Of a stretch of 64,000 nt of DNA, positions 599 to 19,646 are shown piece after piece. Location: assembly GCA_044224905.1 (NCBI GenBank), contig JBGAJN010000001.1, forward strand, positions 1,079,266-1,143,265, read 5' to 3'. The position numbers were made by a program, and so were the translations under genes. The notes under the pieces are model-generated. The model made no database searches, was not told where the DNA came from, and saw only the letters and a program-made list of their open reading frames with translations. The stretch comes from Limisphaerales bacterium (lineage in GTDB: Bacteria; Verrucomicrobiota; Verrucomicrobiia; Limisphaerales; JBGAJN01). Within the stretch, counting starts at the first letter, position 1, and every line of letters starts with the position of its first letter.

Positions 599-613
599 AT
601 GGGGTGAATTCCC
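599..613 (-). promoter_or_regulatory. CACCCCAT-box copy, minus orientation (GGGAATTCACCCCAT, preceded by TA, followed by ATAC)
   Basis: The plus strand reads ATGGGGTGAATTCCC at 599-613. The copy is intergenic, points at the kinase gene and ends 100 nt upstream of its ATG (499). It is a 4-nt-spacer variant of the box found at 2070, 3199, 12912 and 19629. Confidence 0.5.
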
Positions 614-641
614 TATCCCGCGCACTATGACCTCCGTCGGC

Positions 642-1049
642 TCAGTTCTGCCCGCCCGGTCGCTTGCCCGCCTCGCGCTGATCTTCTTTGCGTTCGTCCT
701 CCGGGGTTTCGAACTCCAGATGAAACTTGTGCAAGAAGCGGTTCACGACGGGCGCCAGCAGGACCGCGACTGAAGTAATGAACACTACGCCGCTGAACAA
801 CGCGTAGAATGATGCGAAGAGTTTCCCCGCCACCGTGTGCAATTCGTTCACCGGCCCCATTCCCGTTAGAATCATCGAGGCGTTGAGTAGCGAATCCAAC
901 CACGTGAGTCCGGCGCAGTAGTGATATCCGACAATGCCAAGCCCCAGCGAAAAGCTGAGCATGGCCCATGCGATCCCCAAGCTCCGCAGCACGCGTAGAA
1001 CAAAGATCCGCCGCGGTAACAACGCTCTCTTTTTCCCGTGATCAGCCAT
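642..1049 (-). CDS. small two-TM ion-channel-like membrane protein (degenerate pore loop)
   Basis: 135-aa ORF with two hydrophobic helices flanking WLDSLLNASMILTGMGP. This resembles the W-D-x-x-Y...TTVGYG pore-helix/filter of 2-TM K+ channels, but with a non-canonical filter. The C-terminus is acidic. Co-oriented with cheB and the kinase. Confidence 0.6.
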   Translation of the reverse strand: MADHGKKRALLPRRIFVLRVLRSLGIAWAMLSFSLGLGIVGYHYCAGLTWLDSLLNASMILTGMGPVNELHTVAGKLFASFYALFSGVVFITSVAVLLAPVVNRFLHKFHLEFETPEDERKEDQREAGKRPGGQN

Positions 1050-1177
1050 AGCAATTGGTCTAGATGCGGCACATCACCCGTCCGAGAGGATTCCTCAGCA
1101 GAAGTGTGGCGGACGCTAAAGAATGGTCGCCCGATGCTGGTGCCCAAGCAAGTCAACTGGTTGCACAGTTTGTAAAT

Positions 1178-1846
1178 TTAACGCTGGACCGAAGTCGGCT
1201 TTCTATGGCGCACCTTCAAGTTTTCCTTGGCGCTTCGCCGGGGATTTCTAACTTTCTTGGTCGCGTCAACGAGTTGCATCAATTTTGGCGCAATGGCATT
1301 CAAAGGCAGGATAAAATCCACGTCGCCCGTGTTGATCGAACTTTCCGGCATGCTGAAATCCTGAGACGTGAGTCGATCTTGAGCAATGACCTTGCCCCCT
1401 TTCTTTTTGATGATCTGCACGCCCGTCGAGCCGTCGCCATCTCCACCGGTCAATACTACGGCGATGGCATTCGTTTTGTATAATCTGGCAACCGAAGCAA
1501 ACAGGGGTTCCGCAGATGGGCGTGCGTGATGAACTTTTTCCGCTGACGTGAGTTTGAGACGACCACCTTTAGCCACCACCAGGTGATGATTGGGTGGGGC
1601 AACAAAAACACTGGAACGGCACAGCACGTCGCCGGTATGCGCCTGAGCCACCAGCAAATCTGTGCGACAACTCAGGATTTCGGCCAGGATGCTTTTATGC
1701 TCGGGAGACACGTGCATCACGATGGTAATGGCCGCTCCGAAATCCTTCGGGAGACCGCTCAGAATCACAGACAACGCCTTCAAGCCACCGGCGGAAGCCG
1801 CCATGGCAATCACACAATTTACCGCGTCACATTTCGCTTCACGCAT
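1178..1846 (-). CDS. cheB: CheB-type protein-glutamate methylesterase, catalytic domain only (no REC domain)
   Basis: 222 aa. Carries the CheB catalytic signatures MAASAGGLKAL (Ser), VMHVSP (His) and AQD...FSMPESSI (Asp/GMP region). At this length there is no room for an N-terminal receiver domain. Confidence 0.85.
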   Translation of the reverse strand: MREAKCDAVNCVIAMAASAGGLKALSVILSGLPKDFGAAITIVMHVSPEHKSILAEILSCRTDLLVAQAHTGDVLCRSSVFVAPPNHHLVVAKGGRLKLTSAEKVHHARPSAEPLFASVARLYKTNAIAVVLTGGDGDGSTGVQIIKKKGGKVIAQDRLTSQDFSMPESSINTGDVDFILPLNAIAPKLMQLVDATKKVRNPRRSAKENLKVRHRKPTSVQR

Positions 1847-1969
1847 GAACAGATTTGAAAAAGTTAACAGCCGATCCTATTGGTGGACCCTGATGGCTCG
1901 CGTTGAGCAGAGTCGAGGCGGTTACCTGTTACAGCGTGCTGACGCTGGCGCACGCGTGTCCGCGACACC

Positions 1970-1987
1970 ATGGGGTCTTCACCCCAT
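1970..1987. promoter_or_regulatory. perfect 18-bp palindrome ATGGGGT-CTTC-ACCCCAT (palindromic CACCCCAT-box copy)
   Basis: Read directly at 1970-1987 in the cheB / ohr divergent intergenic region. It lies 124 nt upstream of the cheB ATG (1846) and 83 nt upstream of the next box copy (2070). Confidence 0.5.
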
Positions 1988-2067
1988 CGCGCACCCGTGG
2001 CGGTGTCGGATCGAGTTTCCAAACGGGCCGTCGCTGGGGCTCGGCGACGCGGGCACATGAGAAGTGG

Positions 2068-2085
2068 TAGGGTTACACCCCATGG
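2068..2085 (+). promoter_or_regulatory. CACCCCAT-box copy (TAGGGTTACACCCCATGG)
   Basis: Exact 14-mer GGGTTACACCCCAT at 2070-2083, identical to the copies at 12912 and 19629. It ends 79 nt upstream of the mini-ORF at 2162 that heads the ohr-csbD unit. Confidence 0.55.
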
Positions 2086-2161
2086 GTGGAAGCGCTCTTG
2101 TTGCGTAGGGTGATTTAGACAACGACGGCAATTGAATTGCCATCAAACCGAAAGACTTCTT

Positions 2162-2269
2162 ATGCATTTCCTCGCTACCCCGCTCTTGGCGAACTTTTAC
2201 TACATCGGCGGCGGTTCGGTCGGGGTTCTCCTCGTAATCATCGTTGTGGTGCTCCTGTTGCGCCGCTGA
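2162..2269 (+). CDS. 35-aa hydrophobic mini-protein (single TM, C-terminal RR)
   Basis: Not in the ORF track (<60 aa). ATG 2162 to TGA 2267-2269 encodes MHFLATPLLANFYYIGGGSVGVLLVIIVVVLLLRR. Its spacing behind the box (79 nt) matches the other boxed units (70 and 78 nt). It sits immediately upstream of ohr. Confidence 0.4.
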   Translation: MHFLATPLLANFYYIGGGSVGVLLVIIVVVLLLRR

Positions 2270-2305
2270 TGCCTGACCGGCGGCACGCCAACTCTCGTTC
2301 AATTC

Positions 2306-2743
2306 ATGATCAACAATTCAACTTCGACTATGACCACACTCTTCACTGCAGAATCCATTTCCAAGGGCGGCCGCTCTGGAACGATCAAAACACCCGACGG
2401 CAAGCCGATCGTCACCTTGGGAAATCCCTTGGAGAAGGGTGCGGAGAAGCGCGGCCCCAGTCCCGAGATGCTGTTCGCGGGCGCCTACTCGGCTTGCTAC
2501 CACGGGGCTTTGATCAATGCCACGAAGAAGCTCGGCACCTCGGTCACGGATTCCACCGTGCGGGCCTTGGTCAGTCTAATTGAAGACGATCAGGGCGGAT
2601 ACCGCCTCGGCGTTGAGTTGCACGCCCATCTGCCGGGAGTCGATCGCGCACGGGCGCAACGCATCATGGAGGAAGCGCACAAAACTTGTCCCTATTCCAA
2701 AGCTTTGCGGGGAGATGCGGCGGTCGCACTGATCGTAGATTAG
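2306..2743 (+). CDS. ohr: organic hydroperoxide resistance protein (Ohr/OsmC family)
   Basis: 145-aa ORF; the likely true start is ATG 2330 (MTTLFTAESISKGGRSG). Both catalytic Cys contexts of the Ohr family are present (AYSACYHGAL and HKTCPYSKAL). Confidence 0.9.
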   Translation: MINNSTSTMTTLFTAESISKGGRSGTIKTPDGKPIVTLGNPLEKGAEKRGPSPEMLFAGAYSACYHGALINATKKLGTSVTDSTVRALVSLIEDDQGGYRLGVELHAHLPGVDRARAQRIMEEAHKTCPYSKALRGDAAVALIVD

Positions 2744-2850
2744 CCGTAATTCGCAACGTGCTGGCCAAACAGCGCGCGCGTCGGCCGGTCACAAAATGCT
2801 TTTACCGTCATGACGACGGCGAATGAACCACACAACAACACCAAAACATC

Positions 2851-3051
2851 ATGACCAAACTCGAAATCAAAGGCGACTGGAACATCACCAAGGGCAAGTT
2901 GAAACAGAAGTGGGCCAAGCTCACCGACGACGATCTTCAGTATGCCCAAGGCAAACAGGAGGAACTTGTCGGCCGCATTCAGAAGCGCACGGGCGAAACC
3001 CGGGAAGCGGTCGAAAAGGCTCTGAAGGAATCCTCGTCCACCTGCTGCTAA
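2851..3051 (+). CDS. csbD: CsbD-family general stress protein
   Basis: 66 aa. MTKLEIKGDWNITKGKLKQKWAKLTDDDLQYAQGKQEELVGRIQKRTGETREAVEKAL is the canonical CsbD repeat pattern. Confidence 0.9.
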   Translation: MTKLEIKGDWNITKGKLKQKWAKLTDDDLQYAQGKQEELVGRIQKRTGETREAVEKALKESSSTCC

Positions 3052-3134: not shown

Positions 3135-3172
3135 CAGCCGCTCGGTTTACACCGGGCGGCTGTTCCCTTTTT
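3135..3172 (+). terminator. rho-independent terminator after csbD
   Basis: Stem CAGCCGC(t)CGG 3135-3145 pairs with CCG(g)GCGGCTG 3152-3162 and is followed by TTCCCTTTTT. Confidence 0.7.
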
Positions 3173-3196
3173 AGGCGCGAATGATTGCTGAATCGG

Positions 3197-3214
3197 TAGG
3201 GTTTCACCCCATGG
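3197..3214 (+). promoter_or_regulatory. CACCCCAT-box copy (TAGGGTTTCACCCCATGG)
   Basis: GGGTTTCACCCCAT at 3199-3212 has one mismatch to the 14-mer. It ends 26-47 nt upstream of the three candidate ATGs (3238, 3247, 3259) of the OMP gene. Confidence 0.5.
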
Positions 3215-3237
3215 TTGCAGGCCTTCCGAGCGGTAGC

Positions 3238-3792
3238 ATGACACTTATGAAAAAACTAATGAAACACGGAATGGTCATCGGCGGAACGATCCTGTTGCTG
3301 GCCGCAAAGCCTGTCCTTGCGGCTGACACGAACACATACAATCAGGACGACAGGTATCGCGCCCACGAAACCAGCCTCGATCTGTTCGGCACCGCGGCGA
3401 TCGGCCAACAGACTATCAATCACATCACCGGCATCCGTGCCAATCGCGACGTCGCCTTGGGGGCAGGCGCAGGAATGAACTATTTCCTCACCCGCAACTT
3501 CGGTTTCGGCGCGGAAGCCTACTCCCAGAACATCGGCCACAGCTTCATCGACAACGCGTCGGCCAGCTTGATTGGTCGCTTCCCGCTCGGTTTGAGTGGA
3601 TTTGCCCCTTACGTCTACGGCGGCGGTGGCTATCAATTCGATCCGAACGAACTGTGGTTCGCCCACGTGGGTGCCGGAATCGAGTATCGCTTCACGCGGA
3701 ACATTGGCGCCTTCGTTGACGCCCGTTACGTGTTGACCGACGGCACGAGAAATTATGGTTTGGGACGCGCTGGTGTCCGTTTCGCCTTCTAA
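3238..3792 (+). CDS. outer-membrane beta-barrel protein (OmpW/OprF-N-like small porin family)
   Basis: Signal peptide MKKLMKHGMVIGGTILLLAAKPVLA, alternating beta-strand pattern, Gly/aromatic-rich, and a C-terminal ...GLGRAGVRFAF ending in Phe (OMP sorting signature). The track ORF starts at 3181; I trimmed it to the first ATG after the box. Confidence 0.8.
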   Translation: MTLMKKLMKHGMVIGGTILLLAAKPVLAADTNTYNQDDRYRAHETSLDLFGTAAIGQQTINHITGIRANRDVALGAGAGMNYFLTRNFGFGAEAYSQNIGHSFIDNASASLIGRFPLGLSGFAPYVYGGGGYQFDPNELWFAHVGAGIEYRFTRNIGAFVDARYVLTDGTRNYGLGRAGVRFAF

Positions 3793-3810: not shown

Positions 3811-3841
3811 GCGCCTCCAGAAAAACTGGAGGCGCTTTTTT
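3811..3841 (+). terminator. rho-independent terminator after the OMP gene
   Basis: GCGCCTCCAG 3811-3820, loop AAAAA, CTGGAGGCGC 3826-3835, then TTTTTT. Confidence 0.85.
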
Positions 3842-3905: not shown

Positions 3906-6900
3906 TTAAAGCTTCATCTCCACGAAATGTTCTTTGCGGTCGTCGATTAGCGGAACCGTTTTCCCTGTGAGCGCTGTGCCGTCGAGGAAGAGTTGATTCG
4001 CGTTTGGCGAATCCGCGGATACTCGGCTGAAGGTGATGTGATAGACCGTTTGCTGGTAGCGATAATGAATCTTGTAGCTCGTCCAACTGTTCGGCAGCCG
4101 CGGCGTTAAACGCAATTGATCGCCTTCCCGGTTCACGCCCAGGAGTGTTTCGATCAAGAGCCGATACATCCAGCCAGCGGACCCCGTATACCATGTCCAA
4201 CCGCCACGACCGGTGTGCGGCGCGATCGCGTAGACGTCCGCCGCGACGACATAAGGTTCCACCTTGTAGGTGGCGATCTGTTGGGCGGTCCCGCCGTGAT
4301 GAACGGGATTGAGCAGTGAGAACAGCTCCCACGCGTGGTCGTTTTCGCCCCTGAGCGCGAAGGCCATGACGGTCCAAATCGCTCCGTGAGTGTATTGCCC
4401 GCCGTTTTCGCGAACGCCGGGAATATAGCCTTTGATGTAACCCGGGTTCAGAGACGACTTGTCGAAAGGCGGATCGAACAATTGGATGAGTTCGGCTTTG
4501 CGCCGAACGAGGCGTTCGTCCACAGAGTTCATGGCCTGACGCGAACGCACGGGATCGCCCGCACCGCTGATGACCGACCAGCTTTGCGGCAGGGAATCGA
4601 TCTGACACTCTGGATTGCTCTGGGAACCGAGCGGTTCGCCATTGTCGAAGTAGGCGCGCCGATACCACTCGCCGTCCCAGGCGTGTTGCTCGATGTTCCG
4701 TTGCAATTGACGCGCCTGCGAGAGGCAGCGCTGGGCGAACGGGAGATCGTTGCGTGACCGCGCCAGTTCGGCGAAGCGGTTGAGCACATCGTAAAGAAAA
4801 AAAGCCAGCCAGACGCTTTCGCCCCGTCCGCCTTTTCCCACCATGTTCATGCCGTCATTCCAGTCGCCGCAACCGATCAGCGGCAAACCGTGTTCACCAA
4901 ATCTCAACGCCCGCTCGATAGCTCGAACGCAATGCTCATAGAGCGTCGCGGATTCCTCGGAGCGATGCGGCAGATCGTAGTAAGCCTCCTCCTCCGGTTT
5001 GAGGAGCCTTGCTTCCAGAAAAGGAATCTTTTCATCCAGCACTCCGGTGTCCGCAATGCACGCGACGTAATGGCAGGTCACGTACGGCAACCACAGCAAG
5101 TCGTCGGAAAAATGCGTGCGCACGCCGCGTCCTGCCGGTGGATGCCACCAATGTTGCACGTCGCCTTCGCGAAATTGATGCGAAGCGGCGCGGAGCAAAT
5201 GCTCGCGGATAAGTGCCGGTTCGGAATGCACCAGTGCCATTGAATCTTGCAACTGGTCGCGAAATCCATAAGCGCCACCCGATTGATAGAATCCCGTGCG
5301 ACCCCAGAGCCGGCAGCTCAGCGTCTGGTACAACAACCATCCGTTGGCCATGACGTTCACCGCAGGATCCGGCGTATCGACGTTCACGGACCCGAGCGTG
5401 CGGTTCCAATATTCCCAGACGGCTTCGAGCGTCACGCGACTCGCGTCGGCGCGGCGGAAGCGACGGATGAGATTCTGCACTTCACCAGCGTTGCGCCCCA
5501 CTCCGAGGCGGAAACAAAACTCACGCTCCTGCCCGTCCGCGAGGCTGAAGGCAACCTGCACCGCGCCGCAGGGATCGAGTCCGGCACCGACTTTTCCCGA
5601 GAGCCGAGCGCGCTTCATGGCCGCCGGCTGGGCGAGGTCTGCGTTCCGGCCGATAAACTCTTTTCGATCACCGGTAAGCGTTCGCGTGATGTCGTTCACG
5701 TCGATGAAGGCGATGCGATCCGGGAAATCAGTGTTGTAGTGATTGCGCGCCAAGAGTGCGCCAGTCTTGAGGTCGACCTCTGTTTGCACATGCAGCAGGC
5801 TCTTGTGTCGCAGGTCACCCAACACCCACTCGACGTAGCCCGTGACGGAAAGCCGGCGGGAATCCCCCGAGATGTTGCGCAATTTCAGCACGGAGAACTT
5901 CACTGGCGCATCCATCGCCACATAAACCCACAACTCGGAGGCAATGCCGTGCTCGGTGTGCTCGAACACCGTGTAGCCGAAGCCGTGGCGAATCACATAA
6001 GGCGTTGTCCCCTGCGCAGGCAGCGGCGTGGGCGACCAGAAAGCACCGGTCTGGTCATCGCGAATGTAGAACGCCTCGCCCGTGGTGTCCTGGACCGGAT
6101 CGTTGCTCCATGGCGTCAGTCGAAATTCATGCGAGTTCTCTACCCACGAGTAAGCCGCGCCGCTCTCGGAGATCACGGTGCCGAAGTACGGATTGGCTAG
6201 CACGTTGACCCACGGCGCGGGCGTCATCTGGCCGGGTTGAAGCGTGATCACGTATTCGTGACCGTCGCGAGTGAAGCCGCCGTAGCCATTGGGAAAAATT
6301 AATTCACGTTGCGGAACGTGTTCAGGGAGTTCCGGTGAACGAGAGCGACTGATTTTGAGCGCCGGAATGGCCGGCTCGAGGACGCTGCGATGCTCCATCT
6401 GTTCGGCGAGCGTCCCTTTTTCGTCATCGAGGACAATGCGCGCCGCGGCTTGGAGAAGCACTCGATCATCGTTGGGGATTTGTTCCAATCGCCGAACGAA
6501 AATTCCGCCCGGCTTGTCCAGCATCTGCGCCTCGATGCCTGACGAAATGTGGCTGGTGATCTGATCCTGCAACGTTTGACGGTAAACCGAGACGTCTTCG
6601 TTCACGATCACGAGATCGACCGTCAATCCCTTCATGCGCCAGTAGGAGTGGGCTTGGATCAACTGCCGCACGATCTCGATCTTCGCCCCGTCGCTAATGC
6701 GGAGCAGCACGATTGGGGCATCACCGGAAATTCCGTAGCTCCAGAGCCCGTTTTGGCCGCGTCGATTGTTGAGCAACACTGCGGGATTGGCGCGCCGTGC
6801 AGGGTCCGCGTAGATCAACGCACCGGCGAGTCGCCCGTAAAGCTGAGCCTCCGCCTCGGTGACGTTGAGTTGGTGCAATGTTACTTGGCTGTGAGTCCAC

Positions 6901-9900
6901 GCGAGATCGAATGCGCGGTCGGCCATGCGCGGGCTTTGATACTTCTCCACTTGGGCCAACGCCGCTTCTCGGCTCTCTGTCACACCGATCACGAGATCGA
7001 CGATCGCAGTTTCGTGCGGCGCCAAAGCAATCGTGCGGCGGAGCGAAACGATGGGGTCGAGCACGGAGCCCACGGTGTTCGAAAGCGGCGCCGAATCCTG
7101 CATCGCCGCCGGATTGGCTAGGCTGCCGCCGCGACCGACGAACCGCGATCGATCCGTTTCGCAGGAGACTTGACCCTGGCCACCGCCTTGACCCAGCAGC
7201 AGATGCAGCAACCACGGCGGCTTCTCTTCCGCTGATCGAGCGCGGCGGGTGCAGAGAATAGCGGAGGAGTCGCGAGCGAATTCGGTTTGCACAAAAAGAT
7301 TACTGAAGGCGGGATGCGCCGCATCCGCGCTGGGAAGTGCGAGCACCACTTCGGCGTAGCTCGTCAGTTCAATCTGCCGCGCGACGGGCGAGCGATTGGT
7401 GATGGTGATGCGTCGCAACTCGATATCGTCCTCGGGCGAAACGCTGATCTCGGTATGAATTTCGAGACCCGCGTGACGTTGCCGAAACTCCGCGCGCGCC
7501 TGCGTGAAAATCGCTTCGTAACCCTTCGTGGGGCGCAAGGTGGGTTGGTACGCGGTCGACCAGAATTCACCGGTCACCAGATCGCGCAGATAGACAAACG
7601 TTCCCCAGCAATCGCGCGTCGCGTCTTCACGCCAGCGGGTAACCGCCAGATCGCGCCAGCGACTGTAGCCGCCGCCAGCGCTGCTGATGACGACGTGATA
7701 GCGACCGTTGGAAAGAAGATGAACCTCGGGCACGGGCGGCGAAGGGTTCGTGAAAATCCGCATGATGGATTCGCCGTCTCCGGTGAACGCCCGCGATTCC
7801 TCCAACTTCAAATCTTCGGCGAGCACGCTGGCCGCGGCCTTGGGCACGCGCTCCTGCAACAGGAGATCCGCCGCCTTCAACAATGGACACGCCATGAAGC
7901 GCCGTTGCATCGGGTAGTCGCGCAACAGATTTACCAACGCGAGGAGGCTCATCCCTTGATGATGCGCCATGAACGATTGAATGGTGGCGCTCGTCGTGTC
8001 CGGAGGCAGACGCGACGGCGTGTAATCCACCGCTTCATAGAAACCGTAGGGACCGGAGCGGCCGTCGCTCGCGAGACGTTGCAAGTTTTCGCAGGCTTCG
8101 ACGGGCGCCACCATCAGCGCCATCGCGGTGGCGTATGGGGCGATTACCAAGTCCTCGGCGAGCCCGCGTTTCAATCCCAGACCCGGCACGCCGAACGCGC
8201 GGTATTGGTAATTCAGTTCAACATCGGTGCGGTTGTAGCCCGACTCGGAAATGCCCCACGGCACGCCGCGCAGTTTCCCGTATTCGATCTGCTGTTGCAC
8301 CGCGGCGCGACAGGTGTGATCAAGCAGCGTGTTTTCAAAATTGGGCGTCACGAGCAGCGGCATCAGGTATTCGAACATCGAACCGCTCCACGAAACCAAG
8401 ATTGGCTTGCCTTGCGACGCGACCAGCAATCGTCCCATTGAAAACCAATGGTCTTGAGGAACCTGTCCGAGTGCGATGGCGACGTAGCTGCACAGACGTG
8501 CCTCGGAGGCGAGGAGGTCATAAAAGCTCGTGTCGGCGCGGCGCTCGGTGACGTTGTAGCCGGTGGCGAAAAGGTCCCTTGCTGTGTCGAACAGAAACAG
8601 AAAATCCATGCGAGCCAGGTCATCGCATTGCGTCGCTAATGCTTCCAATGCGGCCAAGCGCTGGCGGGCATGGTCGCTAGCTTCACGCATACAGCGCGTC
8701 CATTCATCGCTGTGCCCGCTGGTTTCGCTCACGACGCCGAGCTGCTCATCCAATTTGGAAACTTCGCGCAACGACAGCGCTTGATCGAGTTGACCCGGGT
8801 TTCCTTCCGACTTCTCAGCGGTTGGTCTGGGAGCGATCGAATCAATTTGCGATTTCGGATTTCGGATTTCGGATTGGGTGATCGCGCCATCTGCGGATTG
8901 GTTGAGGTCACCGCGAGCGGGCAAAGTTAGCCACGGCGCGAGGAAAACCAGTTCTTCAAAATGCTCGTCGCAACTCCGCTTTAGTGTCTGCGTCCAGTCA
9001 TTGAGTTGTTCATCACCGTTCCCAAGTGCGGCGACGAGTGCGTTCGCATGTTGCGTCGTGCTTTGAAGCAGGCGGAACGACGCTCGAAGTCCCGAAGGCG
9101 CGGCGTCGAGTTCGGCATCGAGCTTGGCCAGCGTCGCGTTTTCGTGAGTCAGACCACGAAGCAACTTCACGGTGTCGCGCAGACCGATGAAGATCTGCGG
9201 CGTGAAAATTTTCTCATCGGCTTGTTCGCGCAACCCAGCGGCAAGCGTAAGCAAATGACCCGCGAGGTTGCCGCTGTCCACACTCGATACGTAGAGCGGA
9301 AGGAGAGGCTGCAATGTTCGCGTTTCATACCAGTTGTAAAAATGGCCGCGATGCCGTTCGAGACGTTGCATCGTAGCGAGCGCGGCTTGGGTGCGGCGAA
9401 TCAGGCCACCCGTCGAAAGATATCCAAAGTCGTGAGCCGCCAGATTGGCGAGCAGCGCCAAGCCCATGTTCGTGGGCGAAGTTCGCGACGCAATGACGGG
9501 CGCGGGAATTTCCTGAAAATTGTCCGGCGGTAGCCAATTCTCGCGCGCGGTAACGAAGGTCTCGAAAAAGTGCCAAGTCTTGCGGGCGGTTTGGCGGAGA
9601 AAGCTCAATTGGTCCGCGGACAAATCCGGCGGGCGGGTCTCGATAGGCTGGCTGATCCGCCACGCGATCCACGGAGCCGCGAGCCAGACGCCAATAAGGG
9701 GCAAGGCTGGCAACATCTCGTTGGGTTGGAAAAGTGCTATGGCAAAAGCGCTCGCCAATGCCACCGTTGGCGAAATCCACATGGTGGAGAAGAAGTCCCC
9801 GAGTTCGGCGCGAGTGGAACGCTCCGAATCGCTCGACGTCTGCCATTCGAGAAGTCGCTTATGCGTCACCAGCAGGCGCAGCACGGTTCTCCCGATGGCG

Positions 9901-12719: not shown

Positions 12720-12911
12720 CGAAGCAAGAGCGATGAACGCGCGAACCCGACGCGGAGCCGCGTCAAGCCCGCCGAATCGACTTTGTTGCGCTGGCTATGC
12801 TTTGCCTCAAGACGTTGCGTCACGGTTCCGGACCGGCATATAAGGTGTTTCCCCCTCTTGTGCGGCGGCGCCCTGAGCTCGCGACCGTTCCCGGCGATCA
12901 AAACTAAGGTC

Positions 12912-12929
12912 GGGTTACACCCCATAGCT
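12912..12929 (+). promoter_or_regulatory. CACCCCAT-box copy (GGGTTACACCCCATAGCT)
   Basis: 18-mer identical to 19629-19646. It lies in the divergent region between the glucan synthase (start 12719) and the lipoprotein gene. The 14-mer core ends 70 nt upstream of ATG 12995. Confidence 0.55.
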
Positions 12930-12994
12930 GGATGTTAAGCCAGCAACTAGTTTCATCTCGGTCATCACTGCGACCTTTAACCCGCACATTAATT

Positions 12995-13441
12995 ATGAAA
13001 CACAAAACATTACTCGTCACTTTCCTCTCCGTTGCCGCTTTTACGGTCGGTTGTGACAAATCGGAGACGACTTCCAAGCAACTCGACAAGGTTCAGGAGA
13101 AAGCGGCCGACGCCGCGCAGGATATGAAGGACTACACCTTCGCGCAGAAGTCCGAGTTCGTGGAAAAGATGCAGGCTCAGTTGAGCGAGCTGAACCGCGA
13201 CGTGGACCAGCTCAACGCCAAGATCGAAAAGTCCAGCGACGCAATCAAAGCCGAGGCGCAACCGAAGCTCCAGGCTTTGCGCGACCAAACCGCCCAATTG
13301 AACAAGCAGCTCGACGAAGCGCGCAACGCGACTGAATCCACGTGGGACAGTGTCAAAAGCGGCTTCAAGAAAGCGTACGAATCTTCCAAGCAAGGTTTCC
13401 AACAAGCTCGCCAATGGGTGAGCGAAAAAATAGCGCCGTAG
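12995..13441 (+). CDS. coiled-coil (apolipoprotein/LEA-like) lipoprotein
   Basis: MKHKTLLVTFLSVAAFTVGC lipobox, then an all-helical, Lys/Glu/Gln-rich sequence (148 aa). The track ORF begins at 12932; I trimmed it to the signal peptide start. Confidence 0.75.
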   Translation: MKHKTLLVTFLSVAAFTVGCDKSETTSKQLDKVQEKAADAAQDMKDYTFAQKSEFVEKMQAQLSELNRDVDQLNAKIEKSSDAIKAEAQPKLQALRDQTAQLNKQLDEARNATESTWDSVKSGFKKAYESSKQGFQQARQWVSEKIAP

Positions 13442-13458
13442 AGCGCAAAGGAATTTTT

Positions 13459-13908
13459 ATGAAACAACTTAGTCACTCCAAAATCCGAATCGTTCTCGTC
13501 GCGGTGGCGCTTGGCGCCTTCACGGGTTGCGTCGGGTTCGTCGATGAGCCGCGTCACGGCGGCGTATATGTGGAACCTCGCGGTGTCGTCGTTGGAGCGG
13601 GAGTCGCCGTGCGGGATGACTACGTTTATTATCCCGGCTACGAGGTTTATTACAGCAGCAGCCGGCGCCAATACGTTTACCTCGATGGCCGCTCTTGGGT
13701 CTCGCGACCGGCACCGCCGCACGTCTCCGTCGATGTGTTGTTTGCATCGCCTTCGGTAAGGTTGGATTTCCATGACTCGCCATCGTTCCACCACTCAGCG
13801 GTGGTTCGGCAGTATCCGAGACATTGGGCGCCGTCGGGATCGAGATACAACCGCGGAGACGAACGCCGCTACGAAGGGCAAGGAAACGAACGCGGTCGCG
13901 GCAGATAA
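13459..13908 (+). CDS. lipoprotein, Tyr/Arg-rich, unknown function
   Basis: MKQLSHSKIRIVLVAVALGAFTGC lipobox, then ..RDDYVYYPGYEVYYSSSRRQYVYLDGRSWVSRP.. and a basic C-terminus. It starts 17 nt after the previous stop. The track ORF was trimmed from 13342. Confidence 0.65.
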   Translation: MKQLSHSKIRIVLVAVALGAFTGCVGFVDEPRHGGVYVEPRGVVVGAGVAVRDDYVYYPGYEVYYSSSRRQYVYLDGRSWVSRPAPPHVSVDVLFASPSVRLDFHDSPSFHHSAVVRQYPRHWAPSGSRYNRGDERRYEGQGNERGRGR

Positions 13909-13956
13909 ACCAGAGAGCCGCGCAATTGCTGCGGTTCCGAGAAAGCAAATCCCGTC

Positions 13957-15876
13957 ATGAATGCCATCAACATTTGCAACAAGATCCCCGCATGCTCCGC
14001 ATCGCGCGCCGCCATGCATTGCCTGACCGTAGCGCTAGCTCTGCTAATGGGTTCTAGTTGGAATTCCGCACACGGCCAACTTCAGCCGGCTTACAACGAT
14101 GCGCCCGGAGCACAGGTGCTCACGCGCGGTCCAGTACATGAAGCGTTCGCCGGAATCGTCAGCTTTAATCCCGAGCCGGGCGTCGTGGTTCCGAAAACCC
14201 CGCCGGGCGTCATCGAAGAAATGCCGCCCGAGGAACGGCCTGACGGAGACAACGTCACGTGGATCCCCGGCTATTGGGCGTGGGACGACGAGCGAAGTGA
14301 CTTTCTGTGGGTGAGTGGAACTTGGCGCGCGTTGCCTCCGGGGCGCGAGTGGATCGCCGGCTACTGGGGAAATACCGCGCGCGGCTTCCAATGGACGTCG
14401 GGCTATTGGGCCGACGCCGCTGCCAGGGAAACCATTTATCTGCCCGCGCCGCCTGCGACTGTCGAAACGGGGCCGAATATTGCGGCACCTTCAATTGATT
14501 ACGGTTGGTCGCCGGGATGCTGGGTTTGGTATAGCGGGCGTTACGCGTGGCGTCCGGGCTATTGGGTGCAAGGGCGAGCCGATTGGGATTGGTGTCCGGC
14601 ACATTACGTCTGGACTCCGCGCGGATACATTTTTGTCGGCGGCTTTTGGGATTATCCGGTGGAACGACGCGGCGTGCTTTTTGCGCCGGTCTATTTTGAG
14701 GCCGGAGTTAACGCCCGCCGCGGCTATTCCTATTCGCCCCGAATCGTGATTGATCTGGGCGTTTTCTCGGCCCACCTCTTCCTGCGGCCGAGTTACAGTC
14801 ATTATTATTTTGGCGACTACTATGGCGCGAGCTACGTTCGAGGCGGCTTCTACGCTTCGTTTTCGTTCCAATCCAGCCGACACGGCTACGATCCGATTTA
14901 CTCTCACCAGCGTTGGGAACATCGCCAGGATCGGGAGTGGGATCACCGCGTAGCAGCGTCCTATCAATATCGCCATGACCACGAGAGCGCCCGCCCGCCG
15001 CGCACTTGGGCGGCTCAGCGGTCGATCAACCCGGGTTCCGCGGACTCCCGGCAGAATCACTTGGTGGTAGCCACGCCCTTTGAGCAACTCGCGAAGGGAG
15101 CCGAAAATCCAATCCGCTTCCAACCGGTGGCGAGAGACGAACGGCAGCGTCTTGCCCAGCGAGGCCAGGAAGTGCAACAAAACCGTGATCAGCGTCGTAC
15201 GCTGGAGTCGAAAGTCGCTGCAACGCCCGATCGCAGGGTAAACGCCGTGGTCGAGCCAGCCCGAGTGCAACTCCCGAGATCGCCGATTGTTTCGAAGTCC
15301 GGCAACGGATCGGGAAGAAACTCAGCCCCACCGACGGCACCGCAAGCGCCCAAGCCGGATCCCAAGTTTAGGCCGCAACCGCAATCAACCGTTCGCCCGC
15401 CAAATGTTGAACGGGCAACGCCCCAACCGGACGTCCGCAGGCCCGAAGCGGGCAAGCAACCGGCACCTGTGCGCCCGGAAGCGCTGCGCGCGCCGACGCC
15501 GACTCAACGTGAGACGGCTCCTCGCACCAAGGAATCGAGAATCAAAGGACAGGAGGAAGCGCAACGAAAAGCGATCGAAGCGAATCAGAACGCTGTCCGT
15601 GAACGGGAAACCCGCGCAAAGATGGCAACGCAGAAAGCGAACGAAGATTCTCAACGTTATTTGAAGGATATTGAAAATCGAGCGCGGCAGGACGCCGAAC
15701 GACGCGCGAAAGAATCCGTGGTGAGAACTCCGGAGCCTTCGCCGCGGAACGCAAAGCCTGTCGAGGTGCGACCGCAACCCGCGCCGAAAGGTGCTGCTCC
15801 GAAACGTCCGGATTCGAATGACAAGGCCGACCCGAATGCCGGGGAAAAAGGCCGTGAAAAGAAATCTAAAGATTAG
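13957..15876 (+). CDS. YXWGXW-repeat secreted protein with long Pro/Arg/Glu-rich disordered C-terminal half
   Basis: Signal-like N-terminus, with an alternative start at 14014 (MHCLTVALALLMG). Repeated W-x-x-G-Y-W units are present: WIPGYWAWDD, WVSGTWRA, WIAGYWGN, WTSGYWAD, WSPGCWVWYSGRYAWRPGYWVQ, FVGGFWDYP. Confidence 0.8.
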   Translation: MNAINICNKIPACSASRAAMHCLTVALALLMGSSWNSAHGQLQPAYNDAPGAQVLTRGPVHEAFAGIVSFNPEPGVVVPKTPPGVIEEMPPEERPDGDNVTWIPGYWAWDDERSDFLWVSGTWRALPPGREWIAGYWGNTARGFQWTSGYWADAAARETIYLPAPPATVETGPNIAAPSIDYGWSPGCWVWYSGRYAWRPGYWVQGRADWDWCPAHYVWTPRGYIFVGGFWDYPVERRGVLFAPVYFEAGVNARRGYSYSPRIVIDLGVFSAHLFLRPSYSHYYFGDYYGASYVRGGFYASFSFQSSRHGYDPIYSHQRWEHRQDREWDHRVAASYQYRHDHESARPPRTWAAQRSINPGSADSRQNHLVVATPFEQLAKGAENPIRFQPVARDERQRLAQRGQEVQQNRDQRRTLESKVAATPDRRVNAVVEPARVQLPRSPIVSKSGNGSGRNSAPPTAPQAPKPDPKFRPQPQSTVRPPNVERATPQPDVRRPEAGKQPAPVRPEALRAPTPTQRETAPRTKESRIKGQEEAQRKAIEANQNAVRERETRAKMATQKANEDSQRYLKDIENRARQDAERRAKESVVRTPEPSPRNAKPVEVRPQPAPKGAAPKRPDSNDKADPNAGEKGREKKSKD

Positions 15877-15933
15877 TCAACGGAGCACGGTGGGTCGGTC
15901 TCTTCGGTCAAACACCAAACCATCAAGAAAACT

Positions 15934-16293
15934 ATGAACACAAATCCAAGAAACATCGGAAAATCCCTCAAGACATTCGGAATGATCGCCTCATTGGTCG
16001 CGCTGCCATTAGTCGTGGGCGTGACCGGCTGCACTACCGGCAGTCGCTACGAACAAAGCACGGGCGAGCGAATCGACGACCACGGTACCACCTCTCGCGT
16101 CCGCTCCGCCCTGGCTGACGACTCGCAGTACAAGTATGGCGGAGTGACGGTCGATACGTTCAAGGGCACCGTTCAATTGAGCGGCTTCGTCAATTCTCGC
16201 GACCAGAAAAATCGAGCTGGCGACCTCGCCAGGACCGTCGTTGGTGCGCGCGAAGTGGTGAACAACATCACCGTCAAAGAGTCCGCCAACTAA
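15934..16293 (+). CDS. BON-domain lipoprotein (OsmY-like, single BON)
   Basis: Lipobox VVGVTGC, then DDHGTTSRVRSALADD...VTVDTFKGTVQLSGFVNSRDQKNRAGDLARTVVGAREVVNNITV, which is the BON domain pattern. Confidence 0.85.
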   Translation: MNTNPRNIGKSLKTFGMIASLVALPLVVGVTGCTTGSRYEQSTGERIDDHGTTSRVRSALADDSQYKYGGVTVDTFKGTVQLSGFVNSRDQKNRAGDLARTVVGAREVVNNITVKESAN

Positions 16294-16321
16294 ACTGTGA
16301 GTTGATTTCGGTTCCTTGCGA

Positions 16322-16370
16322 CTTGGTGGCGCCGTTATCCGAACCCGGGTTTCCGCCACCAAGTTTCTTT
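16322..16370 (+). terminator. terminator-like hairpin after the BON lipoprotein gene
   Basis: CTTGGTGGCG 16322-16331 pairs with CGCCACCAAG 16354-16363. There is an inner AACCCGGGTT palindrome, and TTTCTTT follows the stem. Confidence 0.55.
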
Positions 16371-16538
16371 GGTCTTCGCGCTGGGGTTTCCTCGCGGGGA
16401 CGAGATCGAAGAATTGAACGACCGTGCTATGGCGCTGTGCTTTAGCGCCGATATCAACCGACGCAAAGCACCGGAATTCCGATCGCTCGGGGAATCGAAA
16501 TTCAATCGACGACGACTGCTTTTCATCCGCATTCCGAT

Positions 16539-17699
16539 ATGAACGAGCCCCCGTCAACGACGCCGATCCAAGGCAAGCCCGGCTCAGCCGTCGAACCGGT
16601 TCCAGCGGTGGACTCGGCGGGTGTCGACGCGCCAATTGTTGCACCGTCAGACGCCCCGGCCACCGAAACCAATCCTATGCAAGTCGCCCTGGTGGTGATG
16701 GGGGCGATTGCTTTTCTGTATTTCGCTCGTCCTGTGGTGATGCCCGTTTTCCTCGCGTGCATCATTGGCATGGCGTTGAAACCGCTGATCCGTTGGCTGG
16801 ATTCCTGCCGCGTTCCGCCACCGCTTTCTGCAGCGATCCTGCTTCTGCTCTTTGTGTCCGCTGTCGTCATTGGTTTCGCTCAACTGGGGCGCCCAGCAGT
16901 CGCGTGGATGAATGAAGCGCCCCAACACATGACCGAAGTGCGCCACCGCGTTTTGAAAATGGTTCCACGGCTGGCCCACCTCGGGGAGATGGCGGCCGCA
17001 GTCAATAATTTAGGGGCGACGGACGACGAGCAGAACAAGGCCCCCAAAGTGGAATTGAAAGCCAGCCCGGTTCCCGGTGTGTTCATCAACTGGACCGGAA
17101 GCTTTCTCGCTGGTTTGGGCGAGACGCTCGTCCTGTTGTATCTCCTCCTCGCGTCCGGTGATTTGTTTTTGCAGAAACTCGTGCGGGTGATGCCCACGCT
17201 GCGTGACAAAAAAAGCGCCGTGGAAATCAGCCGTGAGATTCAGCAAAACATCTCGAGGTATCTATTCTCCGTCACGTTGATCAACCTCGGCTTGGGCTTG
17301 GTGGTCTGCGGTGGACTCTATTTCATGCACGTGCCCAACGCTCCGATGTGGGGAATGCTCGTGGCCCTGCTGAACTTTGTTCCCTATTTCGGTCCCGTGG
17401 TGGGAATCATTTTACTGGCGACCGTCGGATTGCTCACGTTCGATTCCTTGTGGCAGGCGATTCTCCCTCCGGCTTGGTACCTCCTCCTGCATCTTCTGGA
17501 GGCGAATTTGATTACCCCCGTCTTACTCGGACGCCGGTTCACGCTGAATCCAGTGGTCATTTTCGTTTCATTGATTTTCTGGACGTGGCTCTGGGGCGTG
17601 CCCGGCGCGTTGTTGTCGGTGCCGATTTTGGTTTCGGTCAAAGTCGTTTGCGATCGAGTTCCCGCGATGTCGCACTTCAGCGAACTCCTTTCCACGTGA
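16539..17699 (+). CDS. AI-2E family transporter (PerM/YhhT-type permease)
   Basis: 386 aa with multiple TM helices and the characteristic C-terminal block NFVPYFGPVVG...GRRFTLNPVVIFVSLIFWTWLWGVPGALLSVPIL. Confidence 0.85.
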   Translation: MNEPPSTTPIQGKPGSAVEPVPAVDSAGVDAPIVAPSDAPATETNPMQVALVVMGAIAFLYFARPVVMPVFLACIIGMALKPLIRWLDSCRVPPPLSAAILLLLFVSAVVIGFAQLGRPAVAWMNEAPQHMTEVRHRVLKMVPRLAHLGEMAAAVNNLGATDDEQNKAPKVELKASPVPGVFINWTGSFLAGLGETLVLLYLLLASGDLFLQKLVRVMPTLRDKKSAVEISREIQQNISRYLFSVTLINLGLGLVVCGGLYFMHVPNAPMWGMLVALLNFVPYFGPVVGIILLATVGLLTFDSLWQAILPPAWYLLLHLLEANLITPVLLGRRFTLNPVVIFVSLIFWTWLWGVPGALLSVPILVSVKVVCDRVPAMSHFSELLST

Positions 17700-17702
17700 T
17701 GT

Positions 17703-18554
17703 ATGAATAAACCAACGCCCACGGCCACGCCGACGGACTCCATGGAACGGCCGAGAAATCTCGGGCGGCTTGTCGGTCGTTTGGGCGGATGGGTTTGGGC
17801 GCAATGGGACGAAATGAGGTACGCCGCAGCCGTGATTGGAACGGTGCTGTTCGCCAGCCTTCAACCCAAGCATTGGGTCCGCGTCGTTCGGCGCGCGCTG
17901 GCGCGGCAAGTGGTGAACATCGGTGTCGAATCGGTAGGGTTTGTTCTCGCCCTCGCTTTGTTGGTTGGGATCGCCGTCGTGGTGCAACTCGCGTTTTGGA
18001 CCGGCGAAGTAGGGCAGTCGCAATTGCTGGGACCTTTGTTGGTGACGGTGATCGCTCGCGAACTCGGTCCCGTGCTGATCAACATCGTGGTGATCGTGCG
18101 CAGTGGCAGTGCCATGGCGACAGAGTTGGGCATCATGCAAATCGGTGGGAGAATTGATGAACTCGAGACCCAAGGAAACGCGCCGTTCATTCATCTGGTC
18201 ATGCCGCGTGTGCTGGGCGCCGCGGTGTCGACGTTTTGCCTGACGATAATTTTCATCCTTGGCGCACTGGCGAGCGGGTTCTTCTTCGGAGCGATTCTTG
18301 GGACGAGCAGTTCAGATCTTTCCCTTTTCCTCAACAGCGTGGCGAATGCGGTTCATCCCAAGGACGTGGCGAATGTCGCTGCGAAAAGCATCCTCCCTGC
18401 GCTGTTCGCCAGCGCGTGTTGTTGCATTGGCGGGCTAAGTGTCGGCGGATCCCAGATTGAGCAACTGCCTCAGGCCGCGCAACGGGCGCTTGCCCGCTCC
18501 ATCACGGGACTGTTCGTCATCGCCGCAGTAGTGACGCTGTTGACCTATTTTTAA
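17703..18554 (+). CDS. mlaE: MlaE-family ABC transporter permease
   Basis: 283 aa. ARELGPVLINIVVIVRSGSAMATELGIMQIGGRIDELETQG matches the MlaE/Ttg2B signature (ELGPVLTA..RAGSA..AEIG.M...EQ). Starts 3 nt after the AI-2E gene stop. Confidence 0.85.
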   Translation: MNKPTPTATPTDSMERPRNLGRLVGRLGGWVWAQWDEMRYAAAVIGTVLFASLQPKHWVRVVRRALARQVVNIGVESVGFVLALALLVGIAVVVQLAFWTGEVGQSQLLGPLLVTVIARELGPVLINIVVIVRSGSAMATELGIMQIGGRIDELETQGNAPFIHLVMPRVLGAAVSTFCLTIIFILGALASGFFFGAILGTSSSDLSLFLNSVANAVHPKDVANVAAKSILPALFASACCCIGGLSVGGSQIEQLPQAAQRALARSITGLFVIAAVVTLLTYF

Positions 18555-18583
18555 TCACCATGAAAACGCCACTTATTTGACTG

Positions 18584-19579
18584 ATGGAACCACGCCTTAA
18601 ATTTCGACACGTCAACGAACTCACGGGCACATTCGTGATCGTGGTCATGCTGGCGCTGGTTGTCGCCGTGGTGTGGGCGGGACGCAGTCAACGATGGTTC
18701 AAAAGCAATGTCACGCTGCGGATCTCCCTGCCGGAGGACGGAGCGGCAGGCATTCGTCAGGGATCCGAGGTTTACTTTTTGGGCACACTTGTCGGATCGG
18801 TTTCCGACGTCATCGTAGCGACCACGGGCCGCATGGAAGCCAAGGCAAACATCCGCCGTGACTTTTTCCGTTTCGTGCGGACTGATTCTTCCGCCGTCGT
18901 CAAAAAGAAATTCGGCGTGGCAGGCGACTCATTTTTTGAGATCACCCGCGGCGCAGGCCACCCTCTTCCGGAGGAAAATGCCGCAATCGTTTGCAACGAG
19001 CAGTTCCAGAGCGCGCTCGAATCCGCAGTGGAAGAAATCCGGCGTGAGGCGCTGCTCATGTTGAAGAAAGTAAACAGCGGGCTGGACACGTGGACGAAAT
19101 TGGGCACCAACCTTGGTGAAACGCAGCAGCATCTCGATCAATTCACCGTTCGCTTGCAAAACATGGCAGCGAACGTCGAAGCGGGCAAAGGGACCGTGGG
19201 TAAGCTGCTCACCGAACCCGCTTTGGCTGACGAGGCGAAGCGTTTGCTGGCCCGCGCGAACGACGCCATGAACGCATTGCAGGGCGTAGTCACCAATTTG
19301 AACGGCGTCGTGAAGAACATTCAGAACGGCACCTCCCGACTGCCGGAGATCACCGACGCGGTGGCGAACGAAGCCAAAGACCTTCCCGGGCTCGTACAAC
19401 AAACACAGGCCTCAATGCGGGAAGTGGAACGGTTGATCGAAGCCATGCAGCGGCACTGGCTCTTGCGAAAGTATGTGAACAAAACAAACCCACCGCCGTT
19501 GCTCCCGCGGGACTTCAACGACCGTTCGGAGAAGGAGTCAGCGCCGCCGCTGCGATCACCGAGGAATTCAGGGAACTGA
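18584..19579 (+). CDS. mlaD: MlaD/MCE-domain substrate-binding protein with long helical C-terminus
   Basis: N-terminal TM anchor, then the MCE core (VTLRISLPEDGAAGIRQGSEVYFLGTLVGSVSDVIV) and a coiled-coil tail. Confidence 0.85.
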   Translation: MEPRLKFRHVNELTGTFVIVVMLALVVAVVWAGRSQRWFKSNVTLRISLPEDGAAGIRQGSEVYFLGTLVGSVSDVIVATTGRMEAKANIRRDFFRFVRTDSSAVVKKKFGVAGDSFFEITRGAGHPLPEENAAIVCNEQFQSALESAVEEIRREALLMLKKVNSGLDTWTKLGTNLGETQQHLDQFTVRLQNMAANVEAGKGTVGKLLTEPALADEAKRLLARANDAMNALQGVVTNLNGVVKNIQNGTSRLPEITDAVANEAKDLPGLVQQTQASMREVERLIEAMQRHWLLRKYVNKTNPPPLLPRDFNDRSEKESAPPLRSPRNSGN

Positions 19580-19628
19580 TGGTTGCGCAGAAAACGCAGT
19601 CGGCTGATTTCGAACACCGACTTCAGTA

Positions 19629-19646
19629 GGGTTACACCCCATAGCT
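19629..19646 (+). promoter_or_regulatory. CACCCCAT-box copy (GGGTTACACCCCATAGCT, preceded by TA)
   Basis: 18-mer identical to 12912-12929. The 14-mer core ends 78 nt upstream of ATG 19720. Confidence 0.55.

Follow-up and report, generated by a model that had tools for sequence, protein, structure and literature searches.

Which protein, if any, recognizes a short sequence box that stands in front of six stress-type transcription units in a Limisphaerales genome? The question is raised by a window of 64,000 nucleotides (the whole stretch of DNA analysed here; contig JBGAJN010000001.1, positions 1,079,266 to 1,143,265), in which an initial annotation had proposed the box as the promoter or operator of a general-stress regulon. 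We consider it moderately probable, from sequence comparisons, that the box is the operator of a NarL-type response regulator that would act as an activator at a composite promoter and would control a general-stress regulon. The narrower claim, that some protein binds the box as a cis-element of a conserved stress regulon, is very probable.

The box and its promoter geometry

A re-scan of the window recovered the six copies that had been reported (boxes A to F, Table 1). All six are located within the first 20 kb, all are intergenic, and each is aimed at the adjoining gene. The exact 14-mer GGGTTACACCCCAT occurs three times (2070-2083, 12912-12925, and 19629-19642). With up to two mismatches allowed, the 14-mer yielded 4 matches vs. 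0.11 expected, and the 8-mer CACCCCAT yielded 6 matches vs. 1.07 expected; none of 100 shuffles reached either number, so that the repeat does exceed chance. Looser scans of 21-64 kb agreed with the annotation that no further box is present there, the sole near-miss being a look-alike with four mismatches at approximately 24.03 kb that lacks a -10 hexamer. Two earlier statements had to be revised. The 14-mer had been taken as the conserved unit; its core is real, but the conserved block extends over 17-18 bp, GTAGGGTTWCACCCCAT or ATGGGGTNNNNACCCCAT, plus a flanking R-G-C. The annotation also saw no convincing -10 element at a fixed distance, whereas a -10-like xAnnnT hexamer is found 22 nt after the CAT of the box (21 nt at box D) in 6/6 copies.

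The 17-mer GTAGGGTTWCACCCCAT was scanned in one genome per species (GTDB) in a collection of 596 Gb, where approximately 140 matches, spread over all phyla, would be expected by chance. At least 120 loci were obtained as 8-kb slices (L-numbers designate loci fetched for comparison). According to the record titles, the 120 loci listed comprise 82 from Verrucomicrobiota, 13 from Lentisphaerae/Victivallales, 4 from Kiritimatiellae, 3 from the 'PVC group' (Planctomycetes-Verrucomicrobia-Chlamydiae), 2 from Planctomycetota, 5 from Acidobacteriota, and 11 whose labels are unspecific or odd, the odd ones probably reflecting errors of binning. Limisphaerales/Pedosphaera, Verrucomicrobiales, Akkermansiaceae, and Opitutae are represented among the verrucomicrobial matches listed. 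Box loci of the Verrucomicrobia type, with outer-membrane protein (OMP), BON, and RsbU_N genes, were also seen in contigs of metagenome-assembled genomes under the labels Bifidobacteriaceae (L071, L094, L107, L117), Burkholderiaceae (L091), Dehalococcoidales (L024), and Limnocylindria (L085), and these records are probably mis-binned or mislabelled.

Promoter anatomy was derived from 139 aligned sites, together with an xAnnnT offset scan on 193 sites and an ATG scan on 224 sites. In the aligned sites nothing is conserved upstream of the box between -60 and -5, including any -35 element. Downstream, the box is extended by R17, G18 in 122/139 sites and C19 in 86/139, and it is followed by a TAnnnT hexamer (T39 84/139, A40 113/139, T44 110/139). 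The offset scan, which acts as its own control, revealed xAnnnT at offset 22 in 139/193 sites compared to approximately 4-6 at most other offsets; there were shoulders at 21 and 23, and a smaller peak stood at 17. Since the -10 lies 22 nt after ...CCCCAT, the box itself would occupy approximately -51 to -35, and the -35 slot (17-bp spacer) is the weak T16-R-G18-C19. Start codons peak at nucleotides 35-36 after CAT (49/224 sites vs. approximately 3-4 per position elsewhere), which is 7-8 nt past the -10 hexamer and concerns about 22% of the box promoters. These ATGs often open recognisable genes for CsbD, OsmC, OMP, and lipoproteins (including L025, L071, L049, and L114). The peak supports the predicted start site and, being 35 nt downstream, shows that CCCCAT is not itself a -10. 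Approximately one fifth of the box promoters thus appear to make leaderless mRNAs, and such starts seem to be common in this regulon across Verrucomicrobia.

A scan with the sigma-70 consensus did not call the box promoters, because their -35 is weak, as would fit a weak core promoter dependent on an activator. Computationally, the sites have the geometry of class II activation: a predicted centre at approximately -41 to -44, phase-locked to the -10, and a poor -35. At the promoters of a DUF883-holin operon (Table 1) only the proximal half (AACACCCCATAGC) is present, with a correctly spaced -10, and the proximal half-site may be sufficient at some promoters.

Variability within the box was examined in 76 non-exact sites of the same loci, each with a correctly spaced -10. 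The least variable positions were G3, G4, G5, C11, C12, and C13, as well as T1/A15 and T6/A10, which form a dyad centred on position 8; variation was greatest in the middle (7-9) and at positions 2 and 14. The form with a 4-nt spacer has the perfect palindromic consensus ATGGGGTGWWCACCCCAT and recurs at divergent promoters with correctly spaced -10 hexamers in both directions (L124 5225-5238, L044, L057, and L116). The inverted repeat thus has the 16-20 bp of an operator for a GerE-type helix-turn-helix (HTH), the commoner form being an imperfect, asymmetric dyad. Dyad symmetry and the palindromic form therefore point to a dimeric regulator and not to a sigma -35 element, and they support the earlier suggestion that the half-sites are those of a dimeric regulator. 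The arrangement of sites is also regulator-like, with tandem boxes, and with one palindrome or a back-to-back pair between divergent genes. Tandem boxes were found in some Lentisphaerae and Limisphaerales loci, spaced 22-23 bp from start to start in L034 (5108-5147), L022, and L010 and approximately 15 bp in L087, and their upstream copy has no proper -10.

Regulon content and the candidate regulator

Open reading frames downstream of 214 sites were clustered and scanned with Pfam. The recurring families include 3xBON and DUF5670 (21 loci each) and a small protein with two transmembrane (TM) segments (13 loci). OsmC is a recurrent first gene, and CsbD, PRC-barrel, DUF883 (ElaB-like), DUF3185, AMPK1_CBM, DUF892, Fe/Mn superoxide dismutase (SOD), OMP, a coiled-coil lipoprotein, and YXWGXW/DUF6600 proteins are recurrent as well. 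The loci from Acidobacteriota and Planctomycetota contain the same families (BON x4, DUF6600-FecR, DUF5670, SPFH, and the small TM protein). Hallmark stress genes accordingly recur downstream of the box across taxa, and the predicted role as promoter/operator of a general-stress regulon is supported at sequence level, with the same stress families behind boxes in at least 120 loci from several phyla.

HisKA_3 is the second most frequent first-gene family after the boxes, behind BON. It belongs to a box-preceded operon with a recurrent order: a protein of approximately 240 aa with RsbU_N and HisKA_3, a kinase of approximately 390 aa with RsbU_N, HisKA_3, and HATPase_c, and a NarL-type regulator of approximately 225 aa with REC and GerE domains. 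A stand-alone CheB-like esterase often comes next. RsbU_N was scored at 5e-8 in the kinase and 2.6e-6 in the small paralogue. The operon always opens with this paralogue (Table 1), in which RsbU_N and the HisKA_3 histidine are kept and the ATPase domain is absent; it may modulate the kinase or serve as a phosphotransfer partner.

Linkage between box and operon was found in three differently selected sets of loci. In the motif-selected set, 30/120 listed 8-kb loci hold part of the kinase/NarL-type regulator operon and 17/120 hold a regulator orthologue, compared to a chance estimate of approximately 0.2 such slices for a given single-copy gene; L036 (Lentisphaerales), L046 (Kiritimatiellae), and L002 (Phycisphaerae) are among the operon-bearing loci. 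For kinase-selected loci, fetched by protein from Terrimicrobiaceae, Chthoniobacter, and Verrucomicrobiaceae, a box precedes the operon in 3/3. Eighty metagenome loci selected by regulator homology contain approximately 105 boxes in 408 kb vs. approximately 1 expected, and a box is present in 30/40 of those that are at least 4 kb long; the regulator-selected loci of highest GC content are from Opitutaceae. Boxes can be dense, with at least 8 in 13 kb of L124. The recognition helix S[VI]KT[VI]EKHR of the regulator and its tail IHDTAGLTRYAI..GIIESSVQ are invariant in Verrucomicrobia, one Kiritimatiellae locus, and one Lentisphaerales locus, which matches the invariance of the box.

In the present genome the same linkage is seen. 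Over 11,846 nt the window matches the Logan contig SRR28480385_9561 (L125), which extends leftwards, with 100% identity, and the regulator is encoded on the same contig downstream of box A, approximately 8 kb beyond the left edge of the window. In L125 11348-20669, the small RsbU_N/HisKA_3 gene is followed on the same strand by genes for a CheB-CheR-PAS fusion of 910 aa, a HATPase+REC hybrid kinase of 568 aa, a PAS-HisKA_3 kinase of 857 aa, and the NarL-type regulator of 225 aa; beyond them lie a seventh box (20039-20051) and a PAS-HisKA kinase. The genome thus encodes, in linkage with boxes, both a REC + GerE regulator and a HisKA_3 kinase. This regulator does not reach the cut-off of any named NCBIfam equivalog, and the solved structures closest to it are VraR (best), DesR, DevR, and NarL, with DevR (3c3w) at mid-rank (1.1e-26).

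The most likely binder of the box would be this NarL/FixJ-type response regulator encoded beside it, and we infer from the sequence data that it activates transcription and that stress is the signal. A dimer of the regulator would bind two inverted half-sites, the proximal CACCCCAT and the distal GTAGGGTT, or ATGGGGTG in the palindromic form. The site would be centred near -43 and abut the weak -35 slot (T-R-G-C), followed by the 17-bp spacer and the TAnnnT -10. RNA polymerase would need the regulator, and transcription would start 7-8 nt after the -10, often right on the ATG. The RsbU_N/HisKA_3 kinases and the regulator, in their box-preceded operon, would form a positively autoregulated two-component system driving BON/OsmY-like, CsbD, OsmC/Ohr, DUF5670, PRC-barrel, DUF883, and envelope proteins. 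The predicted regulon would be spread over Verrucomicrobiota, Lentisphaerae, Kiritimatiellae, and some Planctomycetota and Acidobacteriota.

Alternative explanations

Several observations weigh against the NarL-type regulator as the binder. In its commonest form the box is asymmetric and one-directional, which a simple symmetric dimer does not predict: this form has a 3-nt spacer, and divergent genes are then served by two back-to-back boxes. The spacer between half-sites may moreover be 3 or 4 nt. We infer that directionality arises where the proximal half-site overlaps the -35 slot, and this explains the asymmetry only in part. No box was detected at the thresholds used in 10/40 of the regulator-selected loci of at least 4 kb. 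In the 8-kb slices of five Acidobacteriota loci (L001, L031, L064, L065, and L102) the regulator operon was not seen despite exact boxes and stress genes; by tblastx, L001, whose Acidobacteriota label may be a binning error, shares a gene with 73-81% identity with the regulator-selected locus L157. Linkage and autoregulation would also be expected if the two-component system were only a target of another regulator. Finally, the island of Opitutaceae also contains a gene for a sigma factor of the extracytoplasmic function (ECF) type, which has a box-like promoter to itself.

A different dimeric transcription factor, encoded elsewhere, could bind the box, and the kinase/NarL-type operon would then be one more regulon member. 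Dyad symmetry demands a dimer without naming which, regulators are common targets of stress regulons, and the Acidobacteriota boxes stand without a visible regulator operon. We nevertheless regard this explanation as unlikely. Neither among 150 first genes behind boxes nor in the islands does any other DNA-binding family recur; the NarL-type regulator is the only DNA-binding protein linked to the box in every lineage sampled, and its recognition helix is as invariant as the box.

If the box were instead the recognition element of an alternative sigma factor, which the initial annotation had kept as a second option, the ECF-type sigma of the Opitutaceae islands would be one candidate. General-stress regulons elsewhere are driven by sigma factors (sigma-B, RpoS, and EcfG), the 3-nt-spacer box is directional, and CCCCAT is similar to the sigma-32 -10 element. 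The ECF-type sigma (248 aa) adjoins the kinase/regulator genes in Lacunisphaera limnophila CP016094 and in two metagenome loci (Table 1), and its promoter is a variant box, TAGCAYTWCACCCCAT-N22-TAGnCT, with the ATG 7 nt past the -10 in L207 and 13 nt past it in L189 and L190. Orthologues of this sigma were found in 3 of approximately 207 loci, and the named homologues are all from Opitutus/Lacunisphaera except for one Ancylobacter sp., a record that is probably mislabelled. We read it as a lineage-specific member of the regulon, possibly a second tier of regulation. Against a sigma factor as the reader of the box stands the geometry: 22 bp separate the end of the conserved block from the -10, a distance too great for a -35 hexamer, and the -35 slot holds only T-R-G-C. 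The block is moreover a dyad of 17-18 bp with a perfect palindromic form used in both directions, and the -10 is TAnnnT and not the CGT motif of the ECF type. Searches (phmmer) with RpoE, SigW, and SigB yielded 2 sigma-like open reading frames in 950 kb of motif-selected loci, neither of them preceded by a box. Even with a special sigma reading T-R-G-C and TAnnnT, the dyad upstream would still need a dimeric binder of its own. Taken together, recognition by a sigma factor appears improbable.

Specific sigma systems were rejected on similar grounds. The block does not lie at a -35 hexamer 15-19 bp from the -10, as in a promoter of the sigma-B/RpoS/EcfG type, and no autoregulated sigma/anti-sigma pair was found in or beside the regulon, the exception being the ECF-type sigma, in Opitutaceae only. 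Searches (phmmer) with RsbT, RsbS, RsbV, and RsbW gave no matches in the window or in the 950 kb of loci. An RpoH (sigma-32) promoter with CCCCAT as its -10 was also dismissed: there is no conservation upstream of the box, where a CTTGAA-type -35 would be expected 13-15 bp ahead of CCCCAT, the ATG peak lies 35 nt after CAT whereas such a promoter would start approximately 7 nt after CCCCAT, and the genes are not chaperones.

Slightly less probable again is a repressor operator, at which a protein (this regulator or another) would block the -35 region until released by stress. The box does overlap the -35 slot, and palindromic repressor operators are common. The -35 and -10 are both far from consensus and are not called by the sigma-70 scan, however, so that unaided transcription should be poor, and phase-locking to the -10 within 1 bp together with tandem upstream copies is typical of class II activators. 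Regulators of the NarL family positioned at approximately -43 are known as activators, as exemplified by LuxR, DosR, and RcsB.

The outcome that the initial annotation had named as its own refutation, a dispersed repeat of the repetitive extragenic palindromic (REP) type, or else a transcribed RNA structure, either without a promoter role, is hardly credible: GGGT-N3-ACCC could form a short hairpin and the palindromic form a 7-bp stem, but orientation and distance to the -10 and to (leaderless) start codons are fixed, the box is not transcribed because it lies upstream of the predicted start site, the downstream gene set is kept across phyla, and an Rfam scan of window positions 1-22000 gave no match at E up to 1.

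Genes of the window, known systems, and significance

The features of the window, and those of other loci referred to above, are presented in Table 1. A promoter of the box A type (...CACCCCATATACAG) also precedes the orthologous operon in L044, L116, and L039. The first gene behind box A is cut by the window edge; its full sequence, taken from L125, encodes 239 aa without an ATPase domain, and its orthologues contain RsbU_N (2.6e-6) and HisKA_3. The palindromic box B has a correctly spaced -10 on the minus strand only, i.e. towards cheB, and a CheB-like gene is also located behind the regulator in L004, L075, and L100. The hydrophobic mini-gene that opens unit C has no family match and is present as a gene call in the Logan assemblies L125 and L126. 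Behind box D, the OMP mRNA is probably leaderless, because the ATG lies 8 nt after the -10; the orthologues in L025 and L071 have their start codon at the same position. A 15-nt string, GAATCGGTAGGGTTT, is common to site D (3190-3204) and to 17929-17943 inside mlaE, and was taken as a coincidence since chance alone should give approximately 2 direct 15-mer pairs of this kind in 64 kb.

Clusters orthologous to unit E are preceded by boxes in other loci as well. The genes for the AI-2E transporter, MlaE, and MlaD follow this unit after a 246-nt gap (16294-16538) that contains no box, and may be reached by read-through from unit E or form a separate unit; an AI-2E transporter is also present in the stress island of L124. 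No other box-driven operon is conserved as widely as unit F, with BON and DUF5670 genes in 21 loci each and the gene of the small TM protein in 13. Between the stress units lies a gene whose 2937-aa product combines GT2 and Glycoamylase with two GH94 domains and resembles a cyclic beta-1,2-glucan synthase; no box is found ahead of it (12720-12908).

Table 1. Coordinates of boxes, -10 hexamers, and genes in the window, and of selected features in comparison loci.
Feature	Position	Strand	Remarks
Box A, 4-nt-spacer form ATAGGGAATTCACCCCAT	599..616	-	Promoter of RsbU_N/HisKA_3 gene heading kinase/regulator cluster; core GGGAATTCACCCCAT at 599-613
-10-like hexamer of box A, GATGTT	571..576	-	22 nt after CAT
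Box B, palindromic 4-nt-spacer form ATGGGGTCTTCACCCCAT	1970..1987	-	Promoter of cheB-like unit
-10-like hexamer of box B, CAGCGT	1942..1947	-	
Box C, GTAGGGTTACACCCCAT	2067..2083	+	
-10 hexamer of box C, TAGGGT	2106..2111	+	
Box D, GTAGGGTTTCACCCCAT	3196..3212	+	Core GGGTTTCACCCCAT at 3199-3212
-10 hexamer of box D, TAGCAT	3234..3239	+	Spacer 21 nt, 1 nt below usual
Box E, GTCGGGTTACACCCCAT	12909..12925	+	
-10 hexamer of box E, TAGTTT	12948..12953	+	
Box F, GTAGGGTTACACCCCAT	19626..19642	+	
-10-like hexamer of box F, CAACGT	19665..19670	+	
Small RsbU_N + HisKA_3 protein, 5' part	1..499	-	Cut by window edge; RsbU_N E=0.008
135-aa membrane protein	642..1049	-	Downstream of cheB; no family match
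Stand-alone CheB-like methylesterase	1178..1846	-	CheB_methylest 1e-51
35-aa hydrophobic mini-gene (MHFLATPLLANFYYIGGGSVGVLLVIIVVVLLLRR)	2162..2269	+	First gene of unit C (ohr-csbD)
OsmC/Ohr-family protein	2306..2743	+	OsmC 1.4e-13
CsbD-like protein	2851..3051	+	Strong terminator next, 3135-3162
Outer-membrane beta-barrel protein (OMP)	3247..3792	+	ATG 8 nt past -10; terminator 3811-3835
2937-aa protein	3906..12719	-	
Unit E	12995..16293	+	Four genes
Coiled-coil lipoprotein (unit E)	12995..13441	+	
YXWGXW-type protein (unit E)	13459..13908	+	
639-aa WXXGXW protein (unit E)	13957..15876	+	
BON protein (unit E)	15934..16293	+	
AI-2E-family transporter, MlaE, MlaD	16539..19579	+	After 246-nt gap
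Unit F	19720..21038	+	Three genes
3xBON protein (unit F)	19720..20502	+	
DUF5670/lmo0937-like peptide (unit F)	20578..20727	+	
72-aa two-TM protein (unit F)	20820..21038	+	
Kinase paralogue of approximately 240 aa	L004 2517-3245; L121, L122, L124; window 1-499		
ECF-type sigma gene	L207 7417-8211; L189 ~5693-6490; L190 ~5708-6505		
DUF883-holin promoters	L207 6258-6310; L189 6525-6580; L190 6540-6595		Proximal half-site only

Among known systems, DevR/DosR of Mycobacterium tuberculosis (kinases DosS/DosT) likewise pairs a REC + GerE regulator with HisKA_3 kinases. The DosR box is TTSGGGACTWWAGTCCCSAA (PMC2275270). Both that box and cyATGGGGTGWWCACCCCATrg here are palindromic, with a G-triplet and a C-triplet about a WW centre, and a stress/survival regulon with an autoregulated regulator operon, here proposed from sequence, is a further likeness. 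At DosR promoters the proximal box overlaps the -35 near -43; some boxes are arranged in tandem, and there are shared divergent promoters. In contrast to DosR, the prevailing form here has a 3-nt spacer and is asymmetric, the half-site sequence, taxa, and regulon content differ, and the sensor is RsbU_N-like instead of GAF-haem. A DevR/DosR orthologue was rejected as an assignment: the regulator is below every NCBIfam equivalog cut-off, DevR is a distant PDB match, and the half-site differs, so that the likeness is one of mechanism and not of membership.

The boxes of NarL ('7-2-7'), LiaR/VraR, RcsB, and LuxR, like the present one, consist of inverted heptamer or octamer half-sites, which there are bound by dimers with a GerE-type HTH. 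A similar C-rich core is seen in the NarL heptamer TACCCCT, and the boxes of LuxR and RcsB have their centre near -42 to -43. Unlike here, the G-rich and C-rich halves stand in the opposite order in the NarL 7-2-7 site, and the LiaR, VraR, and RcsB boxes are unrelated in sequence. The kinase and its small paralogue share an N-terminal domain of the RsbU_N type with the RsbU/RsbT stressosome module; in Bacillus subtilis this type of domain docks RsbT. The proteins here differ from RsbU in that they have no PP2C phosphatase domain, RsbU_N being fused to HisKA_3 with or without HATPase_c.

In gene content the regulon resembles those of sigma-B (Firmicutes), RpoS (Gammaproteobacteria), and EcfG (Alphaproteobacteria), with CsbD, OsmC/Ohr, BON/OsmY-like, DUF883/ElaB-like, DUF892/YciE-like, PRC-barrel, and SOD proteins, and regulator genes are likewise found inside the regulon. 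Those regulons use an alternative sigma and a bipartite -35/-10 promoter, whereas here a dyad operator stands beside an ordinary TAnnnT -10. Literature searches for the literal motif and for a general-stress regulon in PVC bacteria or Acidobacteria revealed nothing relevant, and the sole verrucomicrobial motif paper they returned was on LexA. No published description of the box was thus found in the searched literature; the class of mechanism, a two-component class II activator with a palindromic box, is familiar.

To our knowledge, no general stress response has been described for Verrucomicrobiota, Lentisphaerae, Kiritimatiellae, Planctomycetota, or Acidobacteriota. Members of these phyla abound in soil, freshwater, and the gut, and little of their gene regulation has been studied. 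The system described here may serve the PVC superphylum (Verrucomicrobiota, Lentisphaerae, Kiritimatiellae, and part of Planctomycetota), together with some Acidobacteriota, as master general stress response, with a two-component system in the place of an alternative sigma, and with a near-invariant operator of 17-18 bp at the -35 region and often leaderless mRNAs as its signature; we see the chances of this broader proposal as evenly balanced. The finding is notable for the breadth and near-invariance of the box across phylum-level divergence. With a near-invariant operator, a defined geometry, and a named candidate regulator, the question is directly testable, and Lacunisphaera limnophila, Opitutus sp. 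GAS368, and Brevifollis gellanilyticus are among the cultured carriers of the system. The regulon can be read from any genome or metagenome-assembled genome by a simple pattern, which makes stress-induced genes predictable in uncultured lineages. If the regulator assignment is true, the box would be a ready-made inducible promoter for genetics in these phyla, and a general-stress programme with a gene content like that of sigma-B, RpoS, and EcfG could be driven by a two-component activator.

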